64,000 nucleotides of DNA from Candidatus Poribacteria bacterium (GCA_965208325.1 OZ242326.1:3232001-3296000); one strand, 5' to 3'; shown: positions 27,761 through 47,739, counted from the first letter of the stretch. A program made the numbers and translations. Notes: generated by a model from the sequence alone, not told the origin.

Positions 27761-29101
27761 ATGATAAAGCGGATTTCAATGACGTGGTTATCGCTCCTTA
27801 TGGTATGGGTGTTGCTCCAGGTCGAGTCCAGCGCTCAGGCGGAAGCGGCGGCATCGGCGACATCGGCGACAGAATCACTTCCTGAATCTGTCGAAGCGGC
27901 ATTGGCTGACGGCATTAATTTGCCGACATTAATTCGCCTCGCTGTCGAGCGCAACCCCAAGCTTAAAATCGCCCGAGCGAAGTGGCAGGCAACTATTGAG
28001 AAGTATCCGCAAGTGACAGCCCTACCGGATCCGATGCTGATGTACAGTTATTTCGCTCGGAGTGTGGAAACCCGTGTCGGACCACAGCGGCACCGCCTCG
28101 GTTTTTCACAGGCGTTGCCATACCCCGGCACACTTGACGCCGCGGGGCGAGTGACGGTGAAGGAGATAGAAATTCAGCGGGTAAAATATGAGCAGGTTGT
28201 GCGCGACGTGATTGTCGACTTGAAACTCAGCTATCACGAATTGACTTACCTTCAACGGGCGAGGCAGGTCACCCATCAGAATCAGCAATTGCTTTCTCAG
28301 ATATTAAACATTGCCACCACCCGCTACGCATCTAGCGAAGCAACGCTAAATGATGTCCTTAAGGCGCAAAGCCAGTTGGCGCAACTGTCTTACGATCTGA
28401 TTCTGTTACGGGAATTGGAGGAGGTCGAAAAGGCGAAAATCAATGCGCTCATTAGCGTCTCTTCGCAGACACCGTTGGGTCCGCCTGCACCCGCGGCATA
28501 CACTGCGCACGACATTCCAATCTCCGATTTGCAAACGAAGGTGTTGGCGGGGCAACAAGAATTACAAATCGCCGATTTGATGATACAGAAGGCTGATGAA
28601 GCCGTTGCGCTCGCCAAGCTGAAAACGAAGCCGCGTTTCAAACTCGATTTGATGACCGTCGAAACTGGCGAGGGGTTGATGCCGGATGCTATCGACAGCG
28701 GGAAAAATCCGATTTCCATCGGAGTCGGCATCTCGATTCCGTGGTCTTCTACAAAGAATCGCAGTCAAATACAAGAGACAGAGTTGAACCGCTCTGCCGC
28801 CATCGAAAACAAACGGTCGATGGAAGATTTGACGTTGGCGAACCTAAGGAAGCTTTATTTCCGCCTGGAGAACGCACGGCGGTTGGTTGACCTTTACGAA
28901 GATAGCCTCATTCCACAAGCCGAGGATGCAATAGAAGTTGCTGAAACATGGCATCAGGAAGGCACAAAAAGTATCGCGGGATTTCTTGAAACGCAGAGCG
29001 TTTGGCTGAACTTTAACCTGGCGCGGCTTCGCGCAATCACCGACTATCAGCAGAGCCTTGCACGGTTGGAACGGCTGATTGGAGGGAGTATATCGCCATG
29101 A
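27761..29101 (+). CDS. TolC family outer membrane efflux protein
   Basis: Signal peptide; LPDPML, SQALPYPG, LARLERLIG; heavy-metal OMF pattern. Confidence 0.9.
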   Translation: MIKRISMTWLSLLMVWVLLQVESSAQAEAAASATSATESLPESVEAALADGINLPTLIRLAVERNPKLKIARAKWQATIEKYPQVTALPDPMLMYSYFARSVETRVGPQRHRLGFSQALPYPGTLDAAGRVTVKEIEIQRVKYEQVVRDVIVDLKLSYHELTYLQRARQVTHQNQQLLSQILNIATTRYASSEATLNDVLKAQSQLAQLSYDLILLRELEEVEKAKINALISVSSQTPLGPPAPAAYTAHDIPISDLQTKVLAGQQELQIADLMIQKADEAVALAKLKTKPRFKLDLMTVETGEGLMPDAIDSGKNPISIGVGISIPWSSTKNRSQIQETELNRSAAIENKRSMEDLTLANLRKLYFRLENARRLVDLYEDSLIPQAEDAIEVAETWHQEGTKSIAGFLETQSVWLNFNLARLRAITDYQQSLARLERLIGGSISP

Positions 29102-30636
29102 AGCATTTCATGATACTCCTTTCCATATTTCTCTTTTCGTGTGCGAGTGGACGGAAGGCGACCTATCAAGACCTGCTGACGCAATTCGAGGATGCGCCAG
29201 CTCCCGAATATTATCGGACTGAAATCGAAATGGACACCCCTAAGCCGGGTAAAGATGAAACCGCCGAAAAAGATGGTTTCTTGACTGAAGTGGAGGCGAA
29301 AGTGCTGAAATTTCAGAGAGAATTTCAAGCGCAATTAGAAGGCGAGACGCCGATTCCGGAACCGTTCTACGACTTTTCGGTACCGCAGATGAAAGCCTAT
29401 CGGGAATTCGCAACGAAGGCGGGGAAGGCTGAGGCGAGATTGGCAGAAACGGTCAGTCTTGAGTTGTTATTGGCGATTGGATATGAGTGGAGCCCCGCCA
29501 TTAAAGCCGCCCGCAAAAAGATGAGAGCCACCCTCGAGCAGTATCCCCAAGCGGTCTATCTGGACAACGTGTTACGGCAATACAACGCCTTTACAAAACA
29601 GCTAGACACGAAAATCGGTCAACCTCGCCATAAAGAGATGGCGGCGATGAATTTTCCATTCCCGGACATGCTAGCGTTGAAAGGGCAAATCGTCACCGAA
29701 GATGTTCAAATCGCCCAAAGGGAAATTGATATTGCACTTCGAGATTTGGTGACAGATATCAAGTTGGCTTATTATGACTATCTCTACCTCAACGAAGCCA
29801 TAGAGATCAATCGAGAAAACCAAGAACTGCTTCGTCAGATGATTCAGATAGCCCAGGCTAAGTTTCGCGCCGGCATCGGCAGATATCACAGCGTAATCAT
29901 GGCGCAAGTGGAGTTTTCCAAACTTTCCGACTCAATTATCACATTAGAAGAGCGGCGTGAAACTGTCATCGCTCGAATCAACACCTTATTGAATCGTCCC
30001 GCCGATGCGACGCTGGGGACGCCGCTGCCCTTGGCATATGGGGATGCCGCGCAACCGTTGGGCGAGCTATACACCCTCGCACTCAAGTCTCGGCAGGAAA
30101 TTCAGAAGCAGAAACTGGTGATTAGTAAAATGAACCTCATAATACAGCTGGCGGGGCAAATGGCGTATCCTGACGCATCGCTCGGCACAAGCTACTTTGA
30201 GAACCGGATGAAGTTATCGCCAATCTTTTCTACGCAGCGCACGCTGAATCCCAAGCACTCAGCGTTGTTTGGACAGAGAGACGCATATATTCGGGAAGTC
30301 GAGATTAAGGCAGATGCAATGCAGCAGAAGCTCACGGAACTTGAGAACGTCACGCGATTTTCAGTTAAGAAGCACCATTTCGGTATGGAGACTGCTGATC
30401 GCAGCATCGCATTATACCGCACTACACTGTTGCCGCAGGCACGGAGCGCTTTGGAGGCGGCGAACACGGCTTATCAAGCTGCGCAGGTTGATTTCATTAG
30501 TTTTCTTGACGCCCAACGTACACTGTTAAAATTTCGCCTCGGAGAACAGCGGGCGTTCCGCGACCATCGTCAACATCTGGCACAGTTAGAACAAGCGGTC
30601 GGACAAGTGTTGCCAAAACAGACTATGGAGGAGTAG
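29098..30636 (+). CDS. Second TolC family outer membrane efflux protein (lipoprotein)
   Basis: Lipobox LFSC; LLPQA...DFISFLDAQRTL...LAQLEQAVG; ATGA overlap with previous gene. Confidence 0.88.
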   Translation: MKHFMILLSIFLFSCASGRKATYQDLLTQFEDAPAPEYYRTEIEMDTPKPGKDETAEKDGFLTEVEAKVLKFQREFQAQLEGETPIPEPFYDFSVPQMKAYREFATKAGKAEARLAETVSLELLLAIGYEWSPAIKAARKKMRATLEQYPQAVYLDNVLRQYNAFTKQLDTKIGQPRHKEMAAMNFPFPDMLALKGQIVTEDVQIAQREIDIALRDLVTDIKLAYYDYLYLNEAIEINRENQELLRQMIQIAQAKFRAGIGRYHSVIMAQVEFSKLSDSIITLEERRETVIARINTLLNRPADATLGTPLPLAYGDAAQPLGELYTLALKSRQEIQKQKLVISKMNLIIQLAGQMAYPDASLGTSYFENRMKLSPIFSTQRTLNPKHSALFGQRDAYIREVEIKADAMQQKLTELENVTRFSVKKHHFGMETADRSIALYRTTLLPQARSALEAANTAYQAAQVDFISFLDAQRTLLKFRLGEQRAFRDHRQHLAQLEQAVGQVLPKQTMEE

Positions 30637-30639
30637 ACC

Positions 30640-32778
30640 ATGATAAGGAACATCAATCGGAATGCGATAATTTTTCCTTTGTTGCTGCTGACAATCGGTT
30701 TTGTTGCGGGGTGCGGAAGGACCGATTCCGCGGAAGAACACACCGCGGAAAAGACTATGGATGGCATGGCGCAGCATGCGGAACATGCAGAACATGCGGA
30801 ACATACGGAACATGCAGAACATGCAGAACACGGTCTAGTCGCTGTCTCTTCGGCAGATGGGGAGAAAATTAGGTACTGGACATGTGTGATGCACCCATCG
30901 GTCAAGATGCCCGTTGAGGCGGATTGCCCCGTGTGTAAAATGGATTTAATTCCGGTTTACGAAGGCGTCGGACTGACACTTACGGAGAGACAGAAATCGC
31001 TGATTCCGGTTCGCACCGAATCGGTTGAATTTCGCAATCTTAACCGCGAAATCCGGACTGTGGGTGTACTGGACTACAACGAAACGCGTATGGCGTATGC
31101 TTCGACCCGAATATCCGGCTGGATTGAAGACCTGCACGTTGACTTCACCGGTATCAATGTCCGTGAAGGCGATGAACTCCTTACGATTTATAGCCCGGAA
31201 CTGTTAGCGGCACAGGAGGAATATCTCACGGCGTTGAAGAGTGTGGATGAATTAAAGGATACGCAATACGCCGAGCTGAAACGTACTGTTGAACAGACGC
31301 TTTCTGCGGCGAAATCCAAGCTGGAACTGTTCGGACTGACTCTGGAACAGATTGATGACATCCGTGAACACGGTAAGGCGCGGACGACACTGCCGTTGTA
31401 TGCGCCTAGCGGCGGAACAGTCATCCACATGAACGTTTACAAGGGGCAACATGTGAAGAGCGGCACAAACCTCTACCGCATTGCGGATCTGAAAAGCCTG
31501 TGGATTATCGCGGATATCTACGAATACGAACTGCCGTGGGTCTATATGGGACAAGAGGTCGAGATTACGGCGCAGTCGATGCCTGACCAGACATTTCATG
31601 GGAAAGTCAACTACATCTATCCATACTTTGATGCGCCAACTCGAACGCAGAAAGTCCACATTGAAGTGCCAAACCCGGACGGACAATTGCGCCCGGGGAT
31701 GTATGTTACTCTCCGATTAAAACCCACTCTAGCGGAAATCTACGCTCGTGAAACACAGCCCAAAGCTGCGTATGCATGTCCAATGCACCCATGGATAACT
31801 TCCGAGATGCCTAGCGATTGCGACATCTGCGGCATGGATCTTGAATCGACGCGCCCGGAAGCGGCGGTATCGGGGCCGATGGAATCCGTTTGGACCTGCC
31901 CGATGCATCCGCAGATAAAACAGTCCGAGTTCGGTGAATGCGACATCTGCGGAATGGACTTAATCGAAAAACAGGTGCCGGTGGAGGCGCATGCCCATGC
32001 CGGCCATAGCCACACCGAGATGAAATCACAGCAGGCAAGCACGACGCAAGAGAAGTGGGTTTGCCCGATGCATCCCGAAGTTCAAGCGGATGAAATGATA
32101 GAATGCGACATCTGCGGTATGGACTTAATTGAAAAACAAGTGCCGGTGGAGGCGCATGCCCATGCCGGCCATAGCCACTCCGAGATGGAATCACCGCACG
32201 AAAGCGCGGCGCAAGAGAAGTGGGTTTGCCCGATGCATCCCGAAGTTCAAGCGGATGAAATGATAGAATGCGACATCTGCGGTATGGATTTGGTTAAGAG
32301 CACGGTTCCAGCAAAATCAACTGCCCATGTAGGCATGGCTTCTGTGCAACAGGAACCTCCGCTGGTGTTCAAGTACGCTTGTCCCGACCACCCCGACCAG
32401 TATGCGACACTGCCGGACAGATGTTCTATAGACGGCAAACCCCTGGTGATGACTGGAGAGGTCTTAGCGGTGCCTAAGAGCGCCGTAATTGACACCGGGT
32501 TACGGAAGATTGTCTTCATTGACCGGGGTGAATCTGGCTACGAGCTGCTTGAAGTCGAGTTGGGGCCAGAAGCATGGGCGGAGGTTGAACACAACGGCCT
32601 GGCGACCAAGCGGCGATTTTATCCCATTATTAAAGGGTTGAATCCCGGGGATATAGTGGTTACGAATGGGAACTACCTCCTCGACTCACAAACGCAATTA
32701 ACCGGGTCAGCGGCGGGTGCGTATGGCGGTGCGATCGGCGGCGACGAAGGATCCAGCGCACCGTCGCATCGGCATTGA
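30640..32778 (+). CDS. cusB: CusB-like RND periplasmic adaptor with six heavy-metal-binding modules
   Basis: Lipobox VAGC; IYSPELLAAQEEYL, LRPGMY; five CxMHP...CxxCxMDL modules plus one CPDHP module. Confidence 0.88.
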   Translation: MIRNINRNAIIFPLLLLTIGFVAGCGRTDSAEEHTAEKTMDGMAQHAEHAEHAEHTEHAEHAEHGLVAVSSADGEKIRYWTCVMHPSVKMPVEADCPVCKMDLIPVYEGVGLTLTERQKSLIPVRTESVEFRNLNREIRTVGVLDYNETRMAYASTRISGWIEDLHVDFTGINVREGDELLTIYSPELLAAQEEYLTALKSVDELKDTQYAELKRTVEQTLSAAKSKLELFGLTLEQIDDIREHGKARTTLPLYAPSGGTVIHMNVYKGQHVKSGTNLYRIADLKSLWIIADIYEYELPWVYMGQEVEITAQSMPDQTFHGKVNYIYPYFDAPTRTQKVHIEVPNPDGQLRPGMYVTLRLKPTLAEIYARETQPKAAYACPMHPWITSEMPSDCDICGMDLESTRPEAAVSGPMESVWTCPMHPQIKQSEFGECDICGMDLIEKQVPVEAHAHAGHSHTEMKSQQASTTQEKWVCPMHPEVQADEMIECDICGMDLIEKQVPVEAHAHAGHSHSEMESPHESAAQEKWVCPMHPEVQADEMIECDICGMDLVKSTVPAKSTAHVGMASVQQEPPLVFKYACPDHPDQYATLPDRCSIDGKPLVMTGEVLAVPKSAVIDTGLRKIVFIDRGESGYELLEVELGPEAWAEVEHNGLATKRRFYPIIKGLNPGDIVVTNGNYLLDSQTQLTGSAAGAYGGAIGGDEGSSAPSHRH
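30772..30831 (+). repeat. 9-bp microsatellite encoding (HAE)n
   Basis: GAACATGCA/G units, about 6.5 copies. Confidence 0.9.
31936..32289 (+). repeat. 165-bp tandem duplication of a metal-binding module plus His linker
   Basis: GAATGCGACATCTGCGG at 31936, 32101 and 32266; nearly identical intervening DNA. Confidence 0.9.
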
Positions 32779-32804
32779 TGCCAATCAGTCTTCAGGAAAG
32801 CGCT

Positions 32805-35800
32805 ATGGTAAACCGAATTATCGAAATCTGCATGGGGAACCGTCTACTCGTCCTTGTTACATTTGTGTTTTTGACAGCCGCGGGCTGGTGGGCGCTGAAT
32901 CGTACTCCGATTGACGCTATTCCCGACATCGGCGAAAATCAGGTTATCGTGTTCGCCGATTGGTCCGGGAGGAGTCCGAGAGACATTGAAGATCAGGTAA
33001 TCTACCCGCTAAGTATTGCCATGCTTGGCATCCCCGATGTCAAAGATGTCCGGTCCACCTCGATGTTCAGTTTCGGATACATCAACATCATTTTCAAGGA
33101 CAATGTGGACTTCTATTGGGCGAGAACCCGAGTGCTCGAACGGATGAATCTCGCACAGAAGGACATGCCCCAAGGGGTGGTGCCGGTGTTGGGACCTGAT
33201 GCTACCGGCATCAGCCAGGTATTTTGGTACACCGTCGAAAACGGCTATTACTGTCCTGACCATCCGACAGAACGGTACGAGCAACCCGGAAAGTGCCCTG
33301 AAGATGGAGAGCCGCTGGTTGCTTCAAGGCTTGACCTACATGAACTCCGCACTTTGCAAGACTGGACGATTCGATACTATCTTGCTTCAGCCGACGGGGT
33401 ATCGGAGGTCGCATCAGTCGGCGGTTACGTGAAACAGTATCAAGTCGATGTCGATCCTAACCTGCTTTTGGCGTACAAAGTGCCGCTTTCAATGGTCTAT
33501 AATGCGATTCGGGACAGCAATGTCGATGTGGGTGCGAAGGTGGTTGAGGAAGGCGGGATGGAGTTCCTTATTCGGGGTTTGGGGTTCATAAAAAGCATTG
33601 AGGACATAGAGGACATCGTAGTCAAGGCGCACGAAGGTGTACCGGTGTACGTCAAGAACCTAGGCACAGTGACGGAGGGGCCAGACTTCCGGCGCGGGGC
33701 GTTGGACAAAGCGGGCGTGCCTGCGACCGGCGGCGTGGTGTTGATGCGATACGGCGACAATCCGTTGCGGGTAATCGAGAATGTGAAAGCGAAGATTGCT
33801 GAAATTGAACCGGGCCTTCCCGCCGGGGTTCGTATAGTACCCTTCTACGACCGGAGCCATCTGATTCACCGCGCGGCGGAAACACTAAAAGACACGCTAA
33901 TCGAGGAGATCGTTGTTGCGGCAGTCGTCATTATCTTCTTCTTGGGTCATGTGACCAACAGCCTGATTATCGCACTGGTATTGCCGTTGGGAGTGCTGCT
34001 CTCGTTCTTGGGCATGAAACTCGTCGGCTTGCCGTCGAATATCATGTCCATGGGCGGGATGGCGATTGCGATCGGTGTTATGGTGGATGCCGGAATCGTC
34101 ATGACGGAAAACATCACCCGCCTACTGCGGGAACCGCATGAAGGCGAGAGCAAACTGCAGGTCGCAACGCGTGCAGCAAAGGAGGTCGGACCGGCGATAT
34201 TTTACGCGATGCTGATTATTATCGTGGCGTTTATCCCGGTGTTTTCGTTGATGGGGCAGGCGGGCAAGCTGTTCAAACCGTTGGCGTTCACCAAAACTTT
34301 CGCGATGCTCGGCGCGGCGATTGTCGCGATTAGCCTCGTTCCGGTTTTGGCATCCATTCTACTTTCTGATCCAACGCGCCGCCCCAACATTTTCGGCCGC
34401 ATTATTGCAATCATCAGTTTCCCTTTGAGAAAATTCGCCGACGGCATCACTTGGATCCTAAAAGCCGTCTACGGTCCAATTATTCGATTTGCTGTCAAAA
34501 ACATATTCACCAAGCTGGTTGTAGTTGCTTTGGCCGCGGCAATTTTAATTGCGAGTATTCCGCTCACACCCTTCTACAAAAATATCGGGCAGGAGTTCAT
34601 GCCTCCGCTCAACGAAGGAGATTTGCTGTTCATGCCGGTGCTGCTGCCCGGCGCGTCGATTACGCAAGCCAAAGATGTGATGTCGAAGCAAGACATGATT
34701 ATGAACCGTTTCCCCGAGGTTTCGATGGTAGTGGGCAAACTCGGGCGAGCGACAACTGCAACTGATCCAGCTCCAATCGGGATGTTTGAAACCATCGTCA
34801 ACATCGTTGACCCTTCTACGTGGCCGCGGCGTGCCGTCAAATCGGGCGCTGCGGCGGACATGGTTTCCAGCGTTGCCAAACGACTTTTGAGCGCCGATAT
34901 CCTGAACAAGGAACATGCAGGACATATAACTACAGATGTTACGGCGCGTATCGCCGATGATGCGGCGGCACGGATTGATGAAATGGCGACGGAGTATCAC
35001 AATCCCTTTATCACTGTTGAGCAACGTGAACAGCTGTACCGAGTTTGGTTGTTGCGGGTGGTTATGGAAAAACTTCTGGCGGAGATGGGCGAATCAAGTC
35101 AACTAGGGGACAGCGAATCAGAGAGCCGACTTCACGCACTCGCCTCCGAGATTGAACCGACGCTTGAGCACAAAATCTACTTTCGCACAAAGACCCGCGC
35201 AGAGCTGATTAACGATCTCACCGAATCGTGCCGTATGCCCGGCGTTTCTCCAATTATGACCCAGCCGATTCGTAACCGCATCGACATGTTGGCGACAGGA
35301 ATTCAGACACCGATTGGTATCAAGGTGTTCGGAACTGATTTGGCAAAAATCGAGGAAATTGCGGTTCGCATTGAGCAGGAATTGCTCAAACTCCCGGGCG
35401 CGGTGGGACCGTATGCCGAGCGGATTGGAAATAAACCGTACCTCGAATTTCATATCGATCGGAAAGAGGCGGCGCGCTACGGGATTAAGATTGGGGCGGT
35501 GCAAAAGATTATTATGACCGCGATTGGCGGCATGAACATCACAACGACAGTCGAAGGGCGGGAGCGTTTTCCCGTTCGCATTCGCTATAAACGGGAATTG
35601 CGCGACAACGTTGAAGCGTTAAAGCGGGTGTTAGTCCCAACGCCCAAGGGCATACAGATTCCGCTAGGGCAATTGGTCAGAATTGAGCGCCGACCGGGTC
35701 CAGCGAAAATCTCATCCGAAAACACCTTGTTGTTTTCGCGGGTGTTCTGCGATGTGGATGCAGATGTCATCGGGCTAGTCAACTTCGTAGAGGCGGCGCA

Positions 35801-36575
35801 GAAGACACTCGACGAGAAAATCAAGCCGACGCTGCCGCAGGGCTATTTCTATTCATTCAGCGGCCAGTATGAAGCGGAATTGGAAGCGCGTTCCCGATTA
35901 CTGGTTGTTGTTCCGGTTTGCATCGCGGTGATTTTCATGCTGCTTTATATTAAGTTCCGTTCGCCATCCGCGATGCTAGCGATATTCCTAGCGCTGCCGT
36001 TCGCGTTTATCGGGGGAATGTGGATGCAGTGGTTGATGCAATATGTGCCCCCCGCGCTCGGCGGCGGATATGCGATTAAATACAGCACCGCCGTGTGGGT
36101 TGGGTATATAGCGCTTTTTGGTGTTGCGGTTGAGGACGGGATTGTATTGATGGAATACCTGCTTGAACGGGTACGAAGAGGCGAACCGGTTAAGGAAGCC
36201 GCCGTCAACGCGGGTTTGTTACGTGTGCGTCCCATCATCATGACGACCGCTACGACAGTGCTAGCGCTCGCTCCGATTATGCTGTATGAAATCAGCACCA
36301 ACACCGGGGCGGAGCTAATGAAACCAATTGCGGTGCCGACCTTCGGCGGAATGATCACTGCGACGGTTGCCAACTTGATTTTAGCGCCCGTGCTGTTTTC
36401 GCTGTTTTATTGGGTAGAAAACCTGGGTGCTCGGCATCGGGGTTCGGAAGGCGGGGAAACCTTGGAATCAGAAGAGTCGCCCGTACCATTGGCGGAAGAT
36501 GAGACTACTGGGGAAGAAATTCCGGCTAGCGACGACGAAACCACGGAGAACGGGGATTCGGAAGTACCGAAGTAA
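32805..36575 (+). CDS. cusA: CusA/SilA-type heavy-metal RND efflux permease with insertions
   Basis: DAIPDI, YWARTRVLERM, LGPDATG, AIGVMVDAGIVMTEN, DPAPIGMFET, RVRPIIMT. Confidence 0.93.
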   Translation: MVNRIIEICMGNRLLVLVTFVFLTAAGWWALNRTPIDAIPDIGENQVIVFADWSGRSPRDIEDQVIYPLSIAMLGIPDVKDVRSTSMFSFGYINIIFKDNVDFYWARTRVLERMNLAQKDMPQGVVPVLGPDATGISQVFWYTVENGYYCPDHPTERYEQPGKCPEDGEPLVASRLDLHELRTLQDWTIRYYLASADGVSEVASVGGYVKQYQVDVDPNLLLAYKVPLSMVYNAIRDSNVDVGAKVVEEGGMEFLIRGLGFIKSIEDIEDIVVKAHEGVPVYVKNLGTVTEGPDFRRGALDKAGVPATGGVVLMRYGDNPLRVIENVKAKIAEIEPGLPAGVRIVPFYDRSHLIHRAAETLKDTLIEEIVVAAVVIIFFLGHVTNSLIIALVLPLGVLLSFLGMKLVGLPSNIMSMGGMAIAIGVMVDAGIVMTENITRLLREPHEGESKLQVATRAAKEVGPAIFYAMLIIIVAFIPVFSLMGQAGKLFKPLAFTKTFAMLGAAIVAISLVPVLASILLSDPTRRPNIFGRIIAIISFPLRKFADGITWILKAVYGPIIRFAVKNIFTKLVVVALAAAILIASIPLTPFYKNIGQEFMPPLNEGDLLFMPVLLPGASITQAKDVMSKQDMIMNRFPEVSMVVGKLGRATTATDPAPIGMFETIVNIVDPSTWPRRAVKSGAAADMVSSVAKRLLSADILNKEHAGHITTDVTARIADDAAARIDEMATEYHNPFITVEQREQLYRVWLLRVVMEKLLAEMGESSQLGDSESESRLHALASEIEPTLEHKIYFRTKTRAELINDLTESCRMPGVSPIMTQPIRNRIDMLATGIQTPIGIKVFGTDLAKIEEIAVRIEQELLKLPGAVGPYAERIGNKPYLEFHIDRKEAARYGIKIGAVQKIIMTAIGGMNITTTVEGRERFPVRIRYKRELRDNVEALKRVLVPTPKGIQIPLGQLVRIERRPGPAKISSENTLLFSRVFCDVDADVIGLVNFVEAAQKTLDEKIKPTLPQGYFYSFSGQYEAELEARSRLLVVVPVCIAVIFMLLYIKFRSPSAMLAIFLALPFAFIGGMWMQWLMQYVPPALGGGYAIKYSTAVWVGYIALFGVAVEDGIVLMEYLLERVRRGEPVKEAAVNAGLLRVRPIIMTTATTVLALAPIMLYEISTNTGAELMKPIAVPTFGGMITATVANLILAPVLFSLFYWVENLGARHRGSEGGETLESEESPVPLAEDETTGEEIPASDDETTENGDSEVPK

Positions 36576-37430: not shown

Positions 37431-39668
37431 ATGCCTCATTTTTGGATATTAATTCGCGTCCCACATGTTTTGCCTCAACAAGGCGCAATTCGATGTCTGC
37501 TGTTGTGGCTGCTGTTATGTCCGTTCATTGCGAGCGCACAACCGGACACGATGCAACCTCATACTTCAGCCTACCGAATATCCCAAGACATCAAGATTGA
37601 CGGGAATCTTGATGAGCCAGAATGGCAAAAAGCCCAGCCGATCAAGCGGTTCCTCCAAATACAACCGAACCAAGGGGAACCGATGACGCAGCCTTCGGAA
37701 GTGCGCATACTTTATGATGAGAAAAACCTCTACTTTGGTTTTACCTTTTACGACTCTGAGATTGAAAAACTGGTTGCCAATGAGATGCGCCGGGATTCTG
37801 ACGGTTTGCGATCCAACGACTACGGTTATCTGCTCTTGGACACATACAATGATCGGCGAAACGCCGTTTTCTTCCGTTTCAATCCGTTGGGCGGGATGGA
37901 AGATACGGCGGTGTCAAACAGCGGCGATAGTCTAAATGGGAGCTGGGATATGGTTTGGGAGTGCCGCAGCAAAATCAGTGCGGACCGGTGGGCATCGGAG
38001 ATTGCTATTCCGTTCAGCCAGCTTCGCTTTAAACGAAGCGACGTGATGACATGGGGAATGAACTTCGGGCGGGAAATTGCGCGGAACCAAGAGATTGGGG
38101 GGTGGAATCCTGCACCGAAGACGTATGGCCCGCTAGGTAAATACCGCACCGCCTACTTCGGCAGTCTCGTTGGTTTGGAGGGTATTTCCCCGTCGCGGCA
38201 TCTGGAAGTGCTGCCTTATGTGCTGTCGGGTGCAAGCCGCATCGCCGCTGAAGGTGAAACCGATGAGGTGTTTGAAGGCGGTTTGGACCTGAAGTATGGA
38301 ATAACACCAAATTTAACTGCCGATTTAACCTTTAACACTGATTTCGCCCAAGTCGAAGCTGACCAAGAACAGGTAAACCTTACCCGTTTCGACCTCTTTT
38401 TCCCTGAGCAGCGACCGTTTTTCTTGGAAGGTGCAAGCATCTTCGATGTGGGCGTTCCACGTACCGGTTTTCACCGCCCGCCGCCCTTACTGCTGTTTTA
38501 CAGCCGCCGCATCGGCCTTGCTGAAGAACGCGCCATCCCGATACTCACCGGGGGAAAAATGACCGGGAAAGTCGGCGCTTACAATATCGGGTTTTTGAAT
38601 GTGTTGACGGACAGGTTTACGGATGATGATTCTCGGGCGGATGTGGACCGCGTCGATGAACCGCGCACAAACTATTCGGTAATGCGCGTAACGCGGGACA
38701 TCTTCAGCGGTTCCTCCATCGGTGCGATCGCCGTCAATAAGCAGGATGCCGACGTGTACAACCGCACGGCGGGGCTTGACTTTTCGTATCGCCCGAAGCG
38801 GGATATGGATTTCCGCGGGCTATTGGCGCGCACATTTGAAGAAGGTGTCTCCGAGCAAGACAGTGCCGTCTACTTTGGCGGCGATTGGCGAACGAACCGG
38901 TTTAAACTCGACGGTTCGTATATCGACATCGGCGAGGATTTTAATCCGGGAGTTGGATTTGTTCATCGCAGCGGCATCCGCGGCTTTCGCGGCAACGCCC
39001 GCTATACGCCGTGGCCGCGGGCATACGGCATTCGACGCATTGAGATTGGACCGCAGTTTGACTTGGTTCTCAATCGAGAGAACACGTTGGAGACACGTGA
39101 GACAAAGTTCGACACTGAATTGCAGTTTGAATCGGGCGATTGGGCCGGTTTCCAAGTCCAGAACACGACAGAACATCTGCGTGAAGAATTCTCGATCCAG
39201 GAGGCAATCATCGCAGTTGGCGATTACGATTTTACGTCGTTTTTTGCATGGGTCGAGACCAGCAACAGCCGGAATATCTTCGGGACGTTCATCGTTCAAC
39301 TAGGTGAATACTATAGCGGCGACATACGCGGTGTTCGAATTGACGGGGCAATCAAGCCCAATGCCCGCCTGAGTATGGAGTCGCTGGTCGAGTTCAACCG
39401 CATCACGTTCCCTGATAAGGCGTTCAATGCCAACGTTTTCGGGGGGCGCGTGAGCTATTCCTTTTCGACGACGCTCTTTACGAAGTTGTTTGCCCAATGG
39501 AGCAGCGAAAAGGACGCAATCTCCACGAATTTTCTAGTAAACTTCATCTACCGCCCCGGCAGCGATTTCTACCTGGTTTTCAACCAGAATTACGATACGG
39601 GCGGCGGCGGGGCAAATCTCCTAGACTGGACACTCGTAGGGAAGATGACGTATTGGTGGAATCCGTAA
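37431..39668 (+). CDS. CBM9-like / DUF5916 outer membrane protein
   Basis: IDGNLDEPEW, TFNTDFAQVEAD, LFFPEQRPFFLEG, FYSRRIG; ends KMTYWWNP. Confidence 0.9.
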   Translation: MPHFWILIRVPHVLPQQGAIRCLLLWLLLCPFIASAQPDTMQPHTSAYRISQDIKIDGNLDEPEWQKAQPIKRFLQIQPNQGEPMTQPSEVRILYDEKNLYFGFTFYDSEIEKLVANEMRRDSDGLRSNDYGYLLLDTYNDRRNAVFFRFNPLGGMEDTAVSNSGDSLNGSWDMVWECRSKISADRWASEIAIPFSQLRFKRSDVMTWGMNFGREIARNQEIGGWNPAPKTYGPLGKYRTAYFGSLVGLEGISPSRHLEVLPYVLSGASRIAAEGETDEVFEGGLDLKYGITPNLTADLTFNTDFAQVEADQEQVNLTRFDLFFPEQRPFFLEGASIFDVGVPRTGFHRPPPLLLFYSRRIGLAEERAIPILTGGKMTGKVGAYNIGFLNVLTDRFTDDDSRADVDRVDEPRTNYSVMRVTRDIFSGSSIGAIAVNKQDADVYNRTAGLDFSYRPKRDMDFRGLLARTFEEGVSEQDSAVYFGGDWRTNRFKLDGSYIDIGEDFNPGVGFVHRSGIRGFRGNARYTPWPRAYGIRRIEIGPQFDLVLNRENTLETRETKFDTELQFESGDWAGFQVQNTTEHLREEFSIQEAIIAVGDYDFTSFFAWVETSNSRNIFGTFIVQLGEYYSGDIRGVRIDGAIKPNARLSMESLVEFNRITFPDKAFNANVFGGRVSYSFSTTLFTKLFAQWSSEKDAISTNFLVNFIYRPGSDFYLVFNQNYDTGGGGANLLDWTLVGKMTYWWNP

Positions 39669-39974
39669 ACATGCGTTTCGGCGCGGCAAATTTCCTTCGT
39701 AGAACCGCTTCGAGTCGTCCGACACCCCATACAACTCTCGTCCGATTTGATAAGGTTTAGGCATTTTATACAATCCACAACGTTATGTTGCTGTGAACCG
39801 CTCCCAGATACGCCGTCCTCGATTCAATATACATGGTTGGGCTTTCCGCGTCTGCATTTTCCAGACCAATCTCTCACTCTACACGTTCACACACGCAATC
39901 GGAATATTTCTGGCTGAATAGTCAAATCAGATTTTGAGGCGTTTGGCTTTTTCCTTACAAAGCCCAAAACATTG

Positions 39975-41147
39975 ATGAAAACTTCCAACAACAGGATCGC
40001 CCTTAATTTTGACGACACCGCAGAAGTGTCAGTCAAAGGCTTTATTGCCCCGATTGAATATACCCAATACAACTTCCATGAAAGGTGGGACGCATTGGCG
40101 AATCTACGGGTTGCTGAGCCAGAAAAGCGATACTCTGCGTCAGATTTTCGTGCGTTTCTTCCTGACGAAGCGGTATCGGTTGGTGAGGTCTGGCAAATTG
40201 AAGAGGAGGGTGTGCTGACGTTGTTGCGGCAACTTCACCCCAATCCACATCTGGATATGCACATTGATGTGGGGGATTCCCGTGGGTTGTGGGCGTGTCT
40301 ACGCGCTTATAACCATCAACTTGCCCATGTTGTGTTCCGCATTCATGCAGAATTTGCGTTGACGGACGGTTGGTTCACACCCTCCCAATTCGCCGGACAT
40401 TTAGTTATCGATCGAATTGAAGACAAGATTGTATTTTTCCAGATGCGCTTACCTGATGGTGTAATGAACTTCGATGTTAACTGGCGAACGACAGAAGAAG
40501 GGTGGGAGCGGTCTATAGTAATTACCGATATCGGCTTCTGTCCACAAATGGAATTACGTGCCGGAATGGAAGCCGGCGTGCAAGACTTTAAATTCATTGA
40601 AGCCATTACGCAAGAAGAAGCCGCGCGCAATTTGATACTGTGTTTTTACAAATCCCAGCAAATTCATTGGGTATCGCTGGAAGAAGCGTTGAAAATCGCA
40701 CCGGTGCAACAGAAGCCGATTCATGCCATATCAATTGATGGGCCGCTGGCTGACGAGGCGTGTTGAGGGAGCGGTAAAGCCTTGAGGGCAGTTGCCCTCT
40801 CACATGACCGGGTCATCAAGTTTTTGAACGAAAATTTCATCAACACTTGGGCAACCAATGCCGAATTAGGGCGTACTTCTAGCCTGCGAGACCCTATTGC
40901 GAAGAGACGCAGGCGCGAATCCAACAGCTTTGACACAACGTCCCCTTTGGTGCAAGCAATCAATAGGGGATGGCAAGAAGGTTCGCCGGTGGATTGCTTG
41001 GTTATATCGCCCGACTTTGAACTGAAAGGGCAACTTCCGCTCAATGAATTCCTTCAGAACGCCCGGAGTAAGGGCATCCGGCAAGAGGAGAGTTACCTAA
41101 CGTTTCTCGTGCAATCGTTAGAAGGGAAACAGCCTGGATTGGAGTAG
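39975..41147 (+). CDS. Selenoprotein N (SELENON/SelN)-like protein, Sec encoded by TGA 40764-40766, about 390 aa
   Basis: ORFs 39972-40766 and 40782-41147 share a frame: ...GPLADEAC-U-GSGKALRAVALS...FLNENFINTW, matching the SelN SCUGSG motif region; FRIHAEF, WFTPSQFAGH and DIGFCPQMEL blocks. Confidence 0.9.
40772..40810 (+). promoter_or_regulatory. Candidate bacterial SECIS hairpin
   Basis: GAGGGC-AGTT-GCCCTC stem starting 18 nt after the UGA, G-containing loop, possible lower stem CGGT/ACCG. Confidence 0.7.
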
Positions 41148-41224
41148 TCGCCAATCCTATCAACGAGCGAACCGCGTAACCGAAATCACCGCAATCGACA
41201 GAAAACAAGCATCGGCTGGTTTTG

Positions 41225-41659
41225 CTACTTCGTGTTACTAGCGCGCAGCAGGTGGATTCCCATTGCACCGTTCAACACCGGTAGCAGCGCATCGAAGAAG
41301 GTCCACACCAGCGAACGGACATCTGCGCTGACCGCGGTAAAATCTTTTGCAGCCTTGCTGATGCCGAACCAGTTCCAGAAAAAGAGTATGGCAGCGAACA
41401 CGAACCCGTAGAAAAGCGCGTTGGCTGTGATGAACTCTTTAACCTTCGGATTCTCGCGGGTGCGGCGTATGCGTAGGTATCCGAATTCCAAGCCTACAAT
41501 AATAGAGATTGCGGAGAGCGGGTCAATTATTTTCCAGATGCGGCTGTACGGATGATCGCTTGAGGACGTGTGGTAGATTGGCTCAATAATAGTGTGGATG
41601 GCGACGATGGCTCCAATTAGAATTAGAACTACGCCAAAGAACCGTTTGAGTCCTTCCAT
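41225..41659 (-). CDS. 4-TM hypothetical membrane protein (paralogue A)
   Basis: AIHTIIEPIYH, ANALFYGFVFAAILFFWNWFG shared with 42042-42476. Confidence 0.85.
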   Translation of the reverse strand: MEGLKRFFGVVLILIGAIVAIHTIIEPIYHTSSSDHPYSRIWKIIDPLSAISIIVGLEFGYLRIRRTRENPKVKEFITANALFYGFVFAAILFFWNWFGISKAAKDFTAVSADVRSLVWTFFDALLPVLNGAMGIHLLRASNTK

Positions 41660-42041
41660 GTAGAATGTCTCCCTGTTAACGGTCGCTTCAGCGATCGTGG
41701 CTGAAGTTGGTGGGTAAGTTTTTTAGACTCAATCCTGAGGTTTACCCCGATTTTCGGCTTGCACGCTTCAATCCGTGGAGAGGCGGAGGGCACAGAGACA
41801 ATCTTCTCTGTGCCCTCACGTATTTGCGTCTTGGTTGGGAACGGGGATTCACATTCCCGACACGCGCTACCTTTTCTGACGCACAACTAATCAAGGCGGC
41901 GGTTCAGGTTAGGAAGTAGTGTGGATTATTGAAAGACTGTGCTGGTTTAGTTGTGCCATCCCAATACATACGGATTTTGCGTTCTGCAGCACAAACTCAT
42001 GGCAAGCACCGATTCTGATGACGAATCACATACAGTGTTGG

Positions 42042-42476
42042 CTATTCGCTGGCACTGGAGCGCAACAGATGGACGCCTATTGCACCACTCAACAGCGGGA
42101 ATAGGGCATCAAAGAAAATCCATACGATCGACCGGACATCGGCGCTGACCGCAGTGAATTCCTTCCCGACATCGCTGATGCCGAACCAGTTCCAGAAAAA
42201 GAGTATGGCTGCGAACACAAATCCGTAGAATAGCGTGTTCGCCGCGATGAACTCTGGACCGCTCGCATTTTCGCCGGCACGTCTCATCCGGCAACAGCCG
42301 AATATCAACCCCAGGATAATGGCAATCGCAGTGAGCGGGTTGATTATGCCCCAAGTTGAACTGTACGGGTTCGCTTCGGTGGATGTGTGGTAAAGCGGTT
42401 CGATAACCGTGTGGATGGCAACGATTGCCGCAATTAGGATGTGAACGACACCTACAATTTGCTTGAAGACCTTCAT
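42042..42476 (-). CDS. 4-TM hypothetical membrane protein (paralogue B)
   Basis: GGAGG RBS; collinear similarity to 41225-41659. Confidence 0.85.
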   Translation of the reverse strand: MKVFKQIVGVVHILIAAIVAIHTVIEPLYHTSTEANPYSSTWGIINPLTAIAIILGLIFGCCRMRRAGENASGPEFIAANTLFYGFVFAAILFFWNWFGISDVGKEFTAVSADVRSIVWIFFDALFPLLSGAIGVHLLRSSASE

Positions 42477-42607
42477 GACAATGTCCTCCAATTTGTTTGT
42501 CGGTTACAGTTAAATCCTGTCCCAAGAAACGAAACAAAGTATATCGTATCATACACCCGCAAAAAATCAACGAAAATGTTACGGAACAATTTGCTCGACT
42601 GTCATGG

Positions 42608-46903: not shown

Positions 46904-47739
46904 AGCAGAAACGGAAATTGGCGAAACGCGGCAGCGAAGCATTTCCCATTAGCCTACTGTGTAATGTGCTCGGCTTGTCTCGAAGCAGTTTCTATTACGA
47001 TTCCAAAGCCGAGGGTGATGCTCAGCTTTGCCGGCATATCGAGCAAATACGTTTATCAAATCACCGCTATGGGTATCGCAGAATCACAAATGAACTGCAT
47101 CGTCAAGGATTGGTTGTCAACCGAAAACGGGTTCAACGTCTGGTTGGCACACTAGGGCTTCGGGTACGTCCTAGGCGAAAGCGGGTGATTACCACCAACA
47201 GTCAACCCGGACGATATGCGTATCCGAATTTGCTCAAAGATTTATCGGCCACTTATCCTGACCAGATTTGGTGTGCAGATATCACCTATATTCCACTGGC
47301 TAGTGGTCAAGTGGCTTATCTGGCGTTATTGTTTGATGTTTTTACTCGAACCATAAGAGGCTGATCGCGAAACATGTCAGTTAACTTGCTGTCTTGGGCA
47401 TTGAGGAGAAAAGCATTAGCAAGACAGCATCGTCCGCAAATCCATCATTCAGACCGTGGTGGACAGTACATTGCTGAGAAGTATTGTCAGCAATTGAGAG
47501 CGATAGCGTGCCGCATTTCCATGACGGAGCGTGGGAAACCGTGGCAGAATCCATACGTTGAGAGTACGATTAGCAGAATCAAAGACGAGTATATCGTTGA
47601 CTCCGAGTATCAGAATTTCCACGATGCGTACAACCAACTATGTCCAGTATTAGATGTCGTGTATAATCAGACAAGGCCTCATTCAGCGCTAGGCTATCGG
47701 ACACCTGCTGAATTCGAGGCCGCGTATAATGCACACTAG
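46870..47739 (+). pseudogene. IS3 transposase OrfB (DDE) with premature TGA at 47362
   Basis: YGYRRI, WCADITYI, HHSDRGGQY, NPYVES, RPHSALGYRTP; stop at the position of the conserved GW. Confidence 0.85.

Follow-up and report, generated by a model that had tools for sequence, protein, structure and literature searches.

A selenoprotein N-type gene with an in-frame UGA, probably decoded as selenocysteine, in a Candidatus Poribacteria genome

Selenoprotein N (SelN) is usually regarded as a selenoprotein of eukaryotes, and mutations in human SELENON give rise to SEPN1-related myopathy. The selenocysteine (Sec) of the animal protein lies in the motif SCUG. In animal cells, the protein is located in the endoplasmic reticulum (ER) and exerts redox control over SERCA2, and no three-dimensional structure of SelN was available as of 2020, according to PMC7474598. 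The present analysis concerns a bacterial gene of this type at positions 39975–41147 of a stretch of 64,000 nucleotides from Candidatus Poribacteria bacterium (GCA_965208325.1 OZ242326.1:3232001-3296000), which is referred to as the window. The window gene contains an in-frame UGA, and the interpretation that it is one Sec-decoded SelN-type gene is given a probability of roughly 0.88.

Other described systems share part of the features of the window protein. Mammalian thioredoxin reductase ends in Gly-Cys-Sec-Gly, where Cys and Sec form a selenenylsulfide that reduces the substrate after having itself been reduced. The window protein similarly has adjacent Cys and Sec followed by Gly, but the two proteins are not homologous; the motif of the reductase is carried on the flexible C-terminal tail of a flavoenzyme, whereas in the window protein the pair lies at a helix N-terminus of a thioredoxin fold and no flavin domain is present. 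The bacterial thioredoxin-like, peroxiredoxin-like, and DsbA-like selenoproteins known from computational selenoproteome surveys have in common with it a UGA at the redox site, Cys-containing homologues, and a stem-loop 3′ of this codon within the gene, which in the window is a candidate recoding signal; they require selABCD, as the window gene is predicted to do. They differ in their UxxC or TxxU motifs and in the absence of the SelN-type N-terminal domain. The DsbH/Thioredox_DsbH (DUF255-type) and DsbD-gamma-type proteins (2ju5, 7tkv, 3ira, 1vrs) share the fold of residues ∼225–390. In contrast with the vicinal C-U of the window protein, they use a CxxC site, they have no N-terminal beta domain, and their sequence similarity to it is not significant.

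No description of a bacterial SelN was found in the open-access literature; a Poribacteria homologue may already be mentioned in the SelN reviews of around 2012 (Castets et al. 2012, J Mol Med). Literature searches combining Poribacteria with SelN or SEPN1 returned nothing, and the combination of Poribacteria with selenoprotein returned one paper, on hydrogenases. In a term search of a 2026 review of the prokaryotic selenoproteome (PMC13188914), selenoprotein N, Poribacteria, and sponges gave no hits, and term look-ups in PMC7474598, PMC13672763, PMC8148124, PMC10298544, PMC3316567, and PMC10650576 gave no bacterial SelN. The window gene is regarded as a member of the SelN family that combines decoding of the bacterial type with a reduced architecture.

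Reading frame and homology to selenoprotein N

The first open reading frame (ORF) extends on the + strand from TTG 39972 or ATG 39975 to a stop codon, TGA, at 40764–40766. ATG 39975 is the likely start codon with TTG 39972 as an alternative, and an N-terminal extension of the protein is impossible because an in-frame TGA at 39915–39917 closes the frame upstream. The TGA at 40764–40766 is preceded by TGT (Cys) at 40761–40763 and followed by GGG AGC GGT AAA GCC, and the frame past it is open as far as the TAG at 41145–41147. A second ORF (40782–41147, TTG start) is in the same frame as the first (39975–40766). The original prediction, made by a model from the DNA sequence alone, described two same-frame ORFs joined by TGT-TGA-GGG-AGC-GGT, which is exact, and expected standard annotation to split the gene. 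Such a split is indeed produced by translation table 11 and by public gene callers, and the database label of close relatives is ‘hypothetical protein [Candidatus Poribacteria bacterium]’. Reading the TGA as Sec (U) yields a protein of 390 residues, ...SIDGPLADEAC-U-GSGKALRAVALSHDRVIKFLNENFINTW..., with the motif C-U-G-S-G in the context ...PLADEAC-U-GSGKALRAV.... The gene and its parts are as follows.

39975..41147, + strand: complete selenoprotein N-like gene, 390 codons plus TAG, based on the frame, the read-through, and homology along the whole core
40761..40766, + strand: TGT-TGA, codons of the putative redox dyad Cys263-Sec264, based on Cys homologues, the conserved TGA, and its retention in two contigs from other studies (X5/X6)
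40784..40799, + strand: candidate bacterial Sec insertion sequence (SECIS) hairpin GAGGGC-AGUU-GCCCUC, based on folds and on pairing in 41 sequences
39975..40574, + strand: N-terminal beta-rich domain, ∼residues 1–200, SelN-specific, based on AlphaFold2 models and on the alignment with animal SelN from F-x-A-F-L-P onward
40647..41144, + strand: C-terminal thioredoxin-fold domain with the Cys-Sec dyad, ∼residues 225–390, based on Foldseek, structure superposition, and the model

Homology to SelN was detected with phmmer in an exhaustive search over 1.84 billion representatives, which gave 411 matches at E ≤1e-3, of which 150 are listed. Three of the 150 matches listed are animal proteins, with library-wide E-values of 3.0e-24 (P0103), 2.9e-23 (P0114, from the dog whelk Nucella lapillus), and 7.5e-20 (P0144, from a wombat). 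BLASTP aligns the window protein with P0103 at 34% identity over 223 columns (E 1e-33) and with P0144 at 28% identity over 242 columns (query 83–293, E 3e-27); the latter alignment crosses the UGA, and relatives of P0144 in vertebrates, one human entry among them, carry the name Selenoprotein N in UniRef and NCBI. In an alignment of 19 sequences, a series of conserved blocks is shared by bacterial and animal proteins, through the UGA to the C-terminus. The shared blocks comprise F-x-A-F-L-P, L-L-x-Q-x-H-P, A-C-L-R-A, and F-R-I-H-A-E-F on the N-terminal side, W-F-T-P-x-Q-F-x-G and D-x-G-x-x-P-Q-M-E-L in the middle, K-P-x-H...G-x-L-D-D-E-S-C-[U/C]-G-S-G-x-x-L-R at the active site, and L-N-x-x-F-x-x-T-W followed by Y-x-x-F-L-x-E-x-L toward the C-terminus. 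The animal rows P0103 and P0114 end at ...DDQSC, precisely at the TGA column of the window gene.

The comparison bears out the features on which the original prediction of a SelN homologue was built. The four blocks that it had matched to SelN, FRIHAEF, WFTPSQFAGH, DIGFCPQMEL, and EEAAR, are all present, with FRIHAEF, WFCPSQFTGH, DLGYLPQMEL, and REEAAQ as their wombat counterparts. The similarity to SelN spans the TGA, as the BLASTP alignment with P0144 covers query residues on both sides of it and the multiple alignment reaches the C-terminus. A CU-motif protein of ∼390 residues without the animal membrane anchor or an EF-hand had been proposed, and the protein has 390 residues and neither element.

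Homology to animal SelN thus covers the whole luminal core, from F-x-A-F-L-P to Y-x-x-F-L-x-E-x-L, and includes the context D-[DE]-x-C-[stop]-G-S-G. Also in common is a thioredoxin domain with Sec, which is predicted for the animal protein in PMC7474598 and PMC10650576 and is modelled here for the window protein. The animal members alone carry 170–250 additional N-terminal residues with the membrane anchor and EF-hand, whereas the window protein begins at the column where the mature core starts, has no type II transmembrane anchor or EF-hand, and is 28–34% identical to its animal relatives. Animal SelN uses a SECIS element in the 3′-untranslated region, in contrast with the window gene, whose candidate recoding hairpin directly follows the UGA within the coding sequence, as is the case in bacteria. 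The animal protein is oriented toward the ER lumen, whereas no export signal is evident in the window copy, and no counterpart of the animal substrate SERCA2 is shown for the window protein.

Searches with domain models and solved structures returned little. No Pfam family, EF-hand included, matches the window protein at E ≤1, and the EF-hand-bearing region of the animal proteins is absent; no calcium control is therefore expected. The read-through protein matches no model in Pfam or NCBIfam, a result that says little because the named animal SelN also gets weak EF-hand matches or none; the animal protein P0299, used as a control, yields weak Pfam EF-hand matches. No SelN chain was found in the PDB by either a sequence search with the read-through protein or a profile search.

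The in-frame UGA and its decoding

The in-frame UGA is a property of the family in the phylum of the window. Matches are present in 131 of 176 genomes of this phylum (10/28, 10/11, and 110/112 in the families f1, f2, and f4, respectively), with up to 12 per genome, often in tandem. The phylum search gave 150 matches that are listed and 668 further ones; exactly one in-frame TGA is found in 150/150 among those listed. In the protein library, 99 of the 150 listed representatives stop exactly at the Cys before the TGA (97 identified by pattern; P0049 and P0062 by eye), and at least 12 start just 3′ of it. Most database copies of the gene are thus divided at one and the same stop.

Homologues that span the site show which residues are counterparts of the UGA. 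Among the matches listed, nine non-animal representatives span it, with six Cys, one Trp, one Ala, and one ambiguous residue. The Cys forms are P0006, P0008, P0019, P0026, P0028, and P0073, and the motif C-C-G-S-G is found in P0006, P0008, P0019, and P0028. The expectation that the TGA column would align to Sec or Cys and not to Trp holds for these six and fails in one homologue. The latter, P0003, is a 526-aa protein from a JGI metagenome with Trp at the Sec column (D-D-E-S-C-W-G-T-M). The Poribacteria paralogues P0162 and P0170, which are 55–57% identical to the window protein, have C-G-[AG]-S-G at this point together with a signal peptide, a 28-residue insert, and an extra C-terminal domain, and may be redox-dead copies.

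The TGA is reproduced in other data. A contig of 1850 nt from run X5, which belongs to a different sponge-metagenome study, spans 39800–41300 with 26 differences, none of them listed at 40764–40766. The contigs of X5 and X6 both carry T>C at 40763 (TGT>TGC, synonymous) directly before the retained TGA, and a sequencing error is dismissed on the basis of these two independent sponge metagenomes, neither of which has a change listed in the codon. Runs that contain the window sequence are mostly labelled as sponge metagenome. In RNA libraries, contigs are short; that of X18 covers 40020–40210 with two differences and that of X19 matches 33 nt. None of these RNA-library contigs crosses the UGA, and they do not demonstrate expression. 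The ratio of nonsynonymous to synonymous substitution rates (dN/dS) against five relatives is 0.09–0.18 upstream of the UGA and 0.17–0.39 downstream, and by this measure purifying selection is continued past the UGA.

The genome, a single contig of 4.71 Mb, encodes the components required for Sec incorporation. All of selA, selB, selC, and selD are found: selA scores 521 bits, selB, directly beside it, 373.5 bits, and selD 376.8 bits, each above its curated cut-off, and the tRNA-Sec gene (selC) at C1:2041505-2041598 adjoins selB. The selD gene, located outside the window (G000:C1:4481278-4482201, − strand), likewise contains an in-frame TGA (K-C-A-G-U-A-S-K) and is therefore a probable selenoprotein gene as well. 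Elsewhere in the genome TGA is an ordinary stop, since prfB is present (512 bits) and TGA terminates 657 of the 1916 open frames that reach 300 codons.

A candidate signal for recoding lies immediately downstream. The hairpin GAGGGC-AGUU-GCCCUC (40784–40799) has a stem that begins 17 nt after the UGA and an apical loop that contains G-U. Across 41 distinct paralogue and orthologue sequences from 30 loci, 95.5% of 246 stem cells are paired; sliding the 3′ partner by one to three columns as a control reduces pairing to 43.5–82.5%, and none of 500 column shuffles reaches the pairing or covariation score of the hairpin. One stem pair changes from G-C to A-U in five sequences, a compensatory and doubly synonymous exchange of AGG/GCC (window, L013) for AGA/GCT (same-genus copy L014). 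Copies that encode ...A-G-E-L-S... retain the stem through a two-base register shift, as read from the alignment. From these comparisons, the support for the hairpin as a recoding signal is judged to be real but modest. In the proposed mechanism, SelB with Sec-tRNA(Sec) would be recruited by this intragenic hairpin, the UGA would not terminate translation, and Sec would be placed next to Cys263.

Fold, proposed chemistry, and rival explanations

An AlphaFold2 model of the read-through protein, built with a 64-row alignment, has a predicted local distance difference test score (pLDDT) of 93.6 and a predicted template modelling score of 0.90. Residues ∼225–390 adopt a thioredoxin fold in this model, and the best superposition of the domain is with DsbH (2ju5, Z 12.6, root-mean-square deviation (rmsd) 3.4, 125 residues aligned), followed by 3f9u (Z 11.9), AGR3 (3ph9, 11.3), 3ira (10.3), 7tkv (9.9), and 1vrs (9.9). 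Foldseek matches of the domain include 7tkv (1.6e-4) and 3ira (5.7e-4) and range to 1e-3. A PDB profile search gave a weak alignment with 3ira (E 0.29) that pairs the Sec with the first Cys of C-H-W-C. The model places a strand at 249–254, a loop that ends in C263-U264, and a helix at 265–272; the N-terminal end of the first helix would therefore be the site of Sec264, a position held in thioredoxin-fold enzymes by the attacking Cys of a CxxC site. The N-terminal domain modelled alone has a pLDDT of 95.3. Its best solved match is a beta barrel of the Rv2717c type (Z 5.5, rmsd 5.1), followed by generic beta barrels, and with a Z of 5.5 only, the Rv2717c-type fold is not assigned.

This arrangement suggests a chemistry for the product. 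By analogy with thioredoxin reductase, Cys263 and Sec264 most likely alternate between a selenol/thiol and a selenenylsulfide form. The product may thus act as a reductase of disulfides by thiol-disulfide exchange, or of sulfenic acids, with the substrate held by the N-terminal domain.

Several observations count against a single Sec-decoded SelN-type gene. The site is occupied by Trp in P0003, by Ala in P0047, and by Gly in Poribacteria paralogues of 557–606 aa (P0162, P0170), and some lineages thus do without the residue at the Sec site. The Sec column is unreliable in the animal records, being dropped in P0144 and P0343 and filled with C or other letters elsewhere; the assignment of animal Sec to the homologous column is for this reason based on published work (PMC7474598) together with the SCUG motif. 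Covariation in the hairpin is thin, as one of six pairs changes on both sides and three are invariant, and the pairing may largely reflect protein constraint because the stem overlaps the conserved peptide L-R-A-x-x-L-S. The 106-nt stretch of the window around it folds unexceptionally (z −1.5; 14 of 200 shuffles as stable), and Rfam, whose coverage of this SECIS type is uncertain, gives no match in 39000–42000 at E ≤10. The cytoplasmic location proposed below is of low certainty, as it is read from the N-terminus only. Finally, the low dN/dS downstream also fits an independent 121-aa ORF that starts at TTG 40782.

Such an ORF is part of an explanation with two genes, in which a 263-residue beta-domain protein ends at the UGA and a 121-residue thioredoxin-like fragment begins at TTG 40782. 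Table 11 and the public gene callers arrive at this outcome, the dN/dS below 1 is compatible with it, and termination at a Sec UGA probably occurs as a by-product under selenium scarcity. Two separate genes are nevertheless unlikely, given that the Cys-site homologues are single uninterrupted proteins, that the five codons from the TGA to the first possible start encode G-S-G-K-A, with G-S-G-K in frame in 46 of 48 copies chosen by a pattern that requires C-stop, and that the thioredoxin fold would be broken between strand 1 and helix 1. Moreover, the two ORFs are in the same frame in 150/150 among the matches listed. Read-through of the UGA with insertion of Trp, Cys, or Gly, whether through near-cognate tRNAs or an altered code, is very unlikely: the Trp of P0003 and the Gly of the 557–606-aa paralogues speak for it, whereas the presence of prfB and the regular use of TGA as a stop, the complete Sec system with a Sec-type selD, and the usual counterpart, a Cys beside another Cys in a thioredoxin-fold active site, speak for Sec. 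Hardly credible is a recent pseudogene, formed when a Cys or Trp codon became a stop, or a TGA created by assembly error. The gene is the sole copy in its genome, encodes neither the signal peptide nor the C-terminal domain that many relatives possess, and has a neighbourhood unlike that of the 29 other loci examined, but it has no frameshifts and no further stops, its dN/dS is 0.09–0.39 on both sides, the TGA recurs in contigs from two further studies, and, with matches in 131 genomes, it stands at the same column in 150/150 among the matches listed.

Wider family, origin, and surroundings

The window gene differs from many of its relatives in its minimal architecture. It is the only SelN-type copy in its own genome, whereas same-genus genomes have 3–5 matches. 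The protein ends at residue 390, the same point as animal SelN, and the same-genus copies L014 and L015 are ∼155 residues longer (546 and 545 aa, respectively); other short forms are L019 (396 aa) and L020 (383 aa). A hydrophobic, signal-like start was recognized by eye in 8 of 29 complete distinct ORFs and is not found in the window copy, whose start M-K-T-S-N-N-R-I corresponds to the column where the mature part of signal-bearing paralogues begins. As it has neither a signal peptide nor an extra C-terminal domain, the window copy probably represents a minimal catalytic core that resides in the cytoplasm. The ∼150-residue C-terminal domain of the long SelN paralogues occurs in three copies elsewhere in the genome, none joined to a SelN gene; free-standing copies are located at G000:C1:3989844-3990653 and 851437-851772, and two are in tandem.

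The relationship to animal SelN was examined in a quick, unrooted maximum-likelihood tree of 101 rows covering the region up to the Sec site, from which 10 of 111 candidates with <170 residues aligned, P0114 among them, were dropped. All six animal rows fall into a single clade (SH-aLRT 100, stem 1.24), which belongs to a starred set of 39 rows. Across the tree from the animals lies the window protein, grouped with P0006 and P0008 in another starred set, of 14 rows. This distance argues against a recent transfer of the window lineage between sponge host and Poribacteria. Of the two origins raised by the original prediction, host–symbiont transfer is thus unsupported in its recent form, and an old bacterial family is compatible with the tree and not proven by it. 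A further proposal, put forward tentatively and at less than even odds, is that SelN is not an animal invention and that animals acquired one lineage of old bacterial Cys-Sec thioredoxin-fold reductases or sensors. On an equally speculative footing, the bacterial proteins would be mostly exported, sometimes fused to extracytoplasmic function (ECF) sigma factors, and present in about a dozen copies per Poribacteria genome. The membrane anchor and EF-hand may then have been added by animals, a step that is held with the same reserve.

Domain fusions occur in the wider family. In P0006 and P0113, which come from other bacteria, a SelN-like module is preceded by an ECF sigma factor (Sigma70_r2 + r4) with a hydrophobic segment between them; the motif of P0006 is C-C-G-S-G, whereas P0113 stops at the Sec position. 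This fusion suggests that the SelN-like module can act as an extracytoplasmic redox sensor. In P0041 (1101 aa), the C-terminus consists of a SelN-like module truncated at the Sec position, and the large, unrelated N-terminal region contains a second thioredoxin-like stretch. A search of species-representative genomes for Cys forms yielded one locus, L043, from a Verrucomicrobiales metagenome-assembled genome, with 63 residues matched. The family profile found nothing in the genome of L043 or in 301 sampled genomes of its phylum, and this holder outside Poribacteria is not upheld; the sampling says nothing on absence elsewhere.

The family bears on both SelN biochemistry and sponge symbiosis. 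A small bacterial homologue, soluble and with a confidently predicted two-domain fold, provides a practical route to the structure and enzymology of SelN, for instance with Sec replaced by Cys. If the family is indeed old and bacterial, the window copy would be a natural minimal core and a soluble stand-in for the human disease protein, useful for the structure, redox chemistry, and substrate logic of human SelN. The analysis adds a family whose members appear in public annotation as pairs of ‘hypothetical proteins’ and for which there is no Pfam or NCBIfam model, and it raises the evolutionary question of whether SelN began in bacteria. The abundance of the family (131 of 176 Poribacteria genomes, up to 12 matches each) suggests that redox chemistry based on selenium is a major investment in the sponge symbiosis.

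Neighbouring genes provide no functional clue, as they are not common to other loci; in none of 29 other loci is a neighbour of the window gene found within ∼1.5 kb of the homologue. Upstream are a heavy-metal efflux operon of the resistance-nodulation-division (RND) type and a DUF5916 protein, and downstream are small membrane proteins. A scan of the region for promoters gave two sites against 1.7 expected from shuffles, and terminators were likewise not above chance. The weak promoter candidate upstream of the gene is the following.

39747..39774, + strand: promoter-like TTGATA-16-TACAAT (10/12), ∼200 nt 5′ of the start codon, no better than chance

The RND operon (29098–36575, + strand) consists of three genes, which encode an outer-membrane factor (OEP), a CusB/HlyD-type adaptor, and an AcrB/CusA-type pump. 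The adaptor has five heavy-metal-binding-domain repeats, and the 1266-aa pump has a weak match to the same domain. The downstream membrane proteins (41225–41659 and 42042–42491, both − strand), of 144 and 149 aa, are very similar and look like tandem paralogues; one of them has a sub-threshold DUF6814 match. An IS3-type transposase (46918–47739, + strand) is spread over two ORFs, the first with HTH_21 and the start of rve and the second with the rest of rve and rve_3, and is either a damaged copy or an instance of the programmed frameshifting that is usual for such elements.

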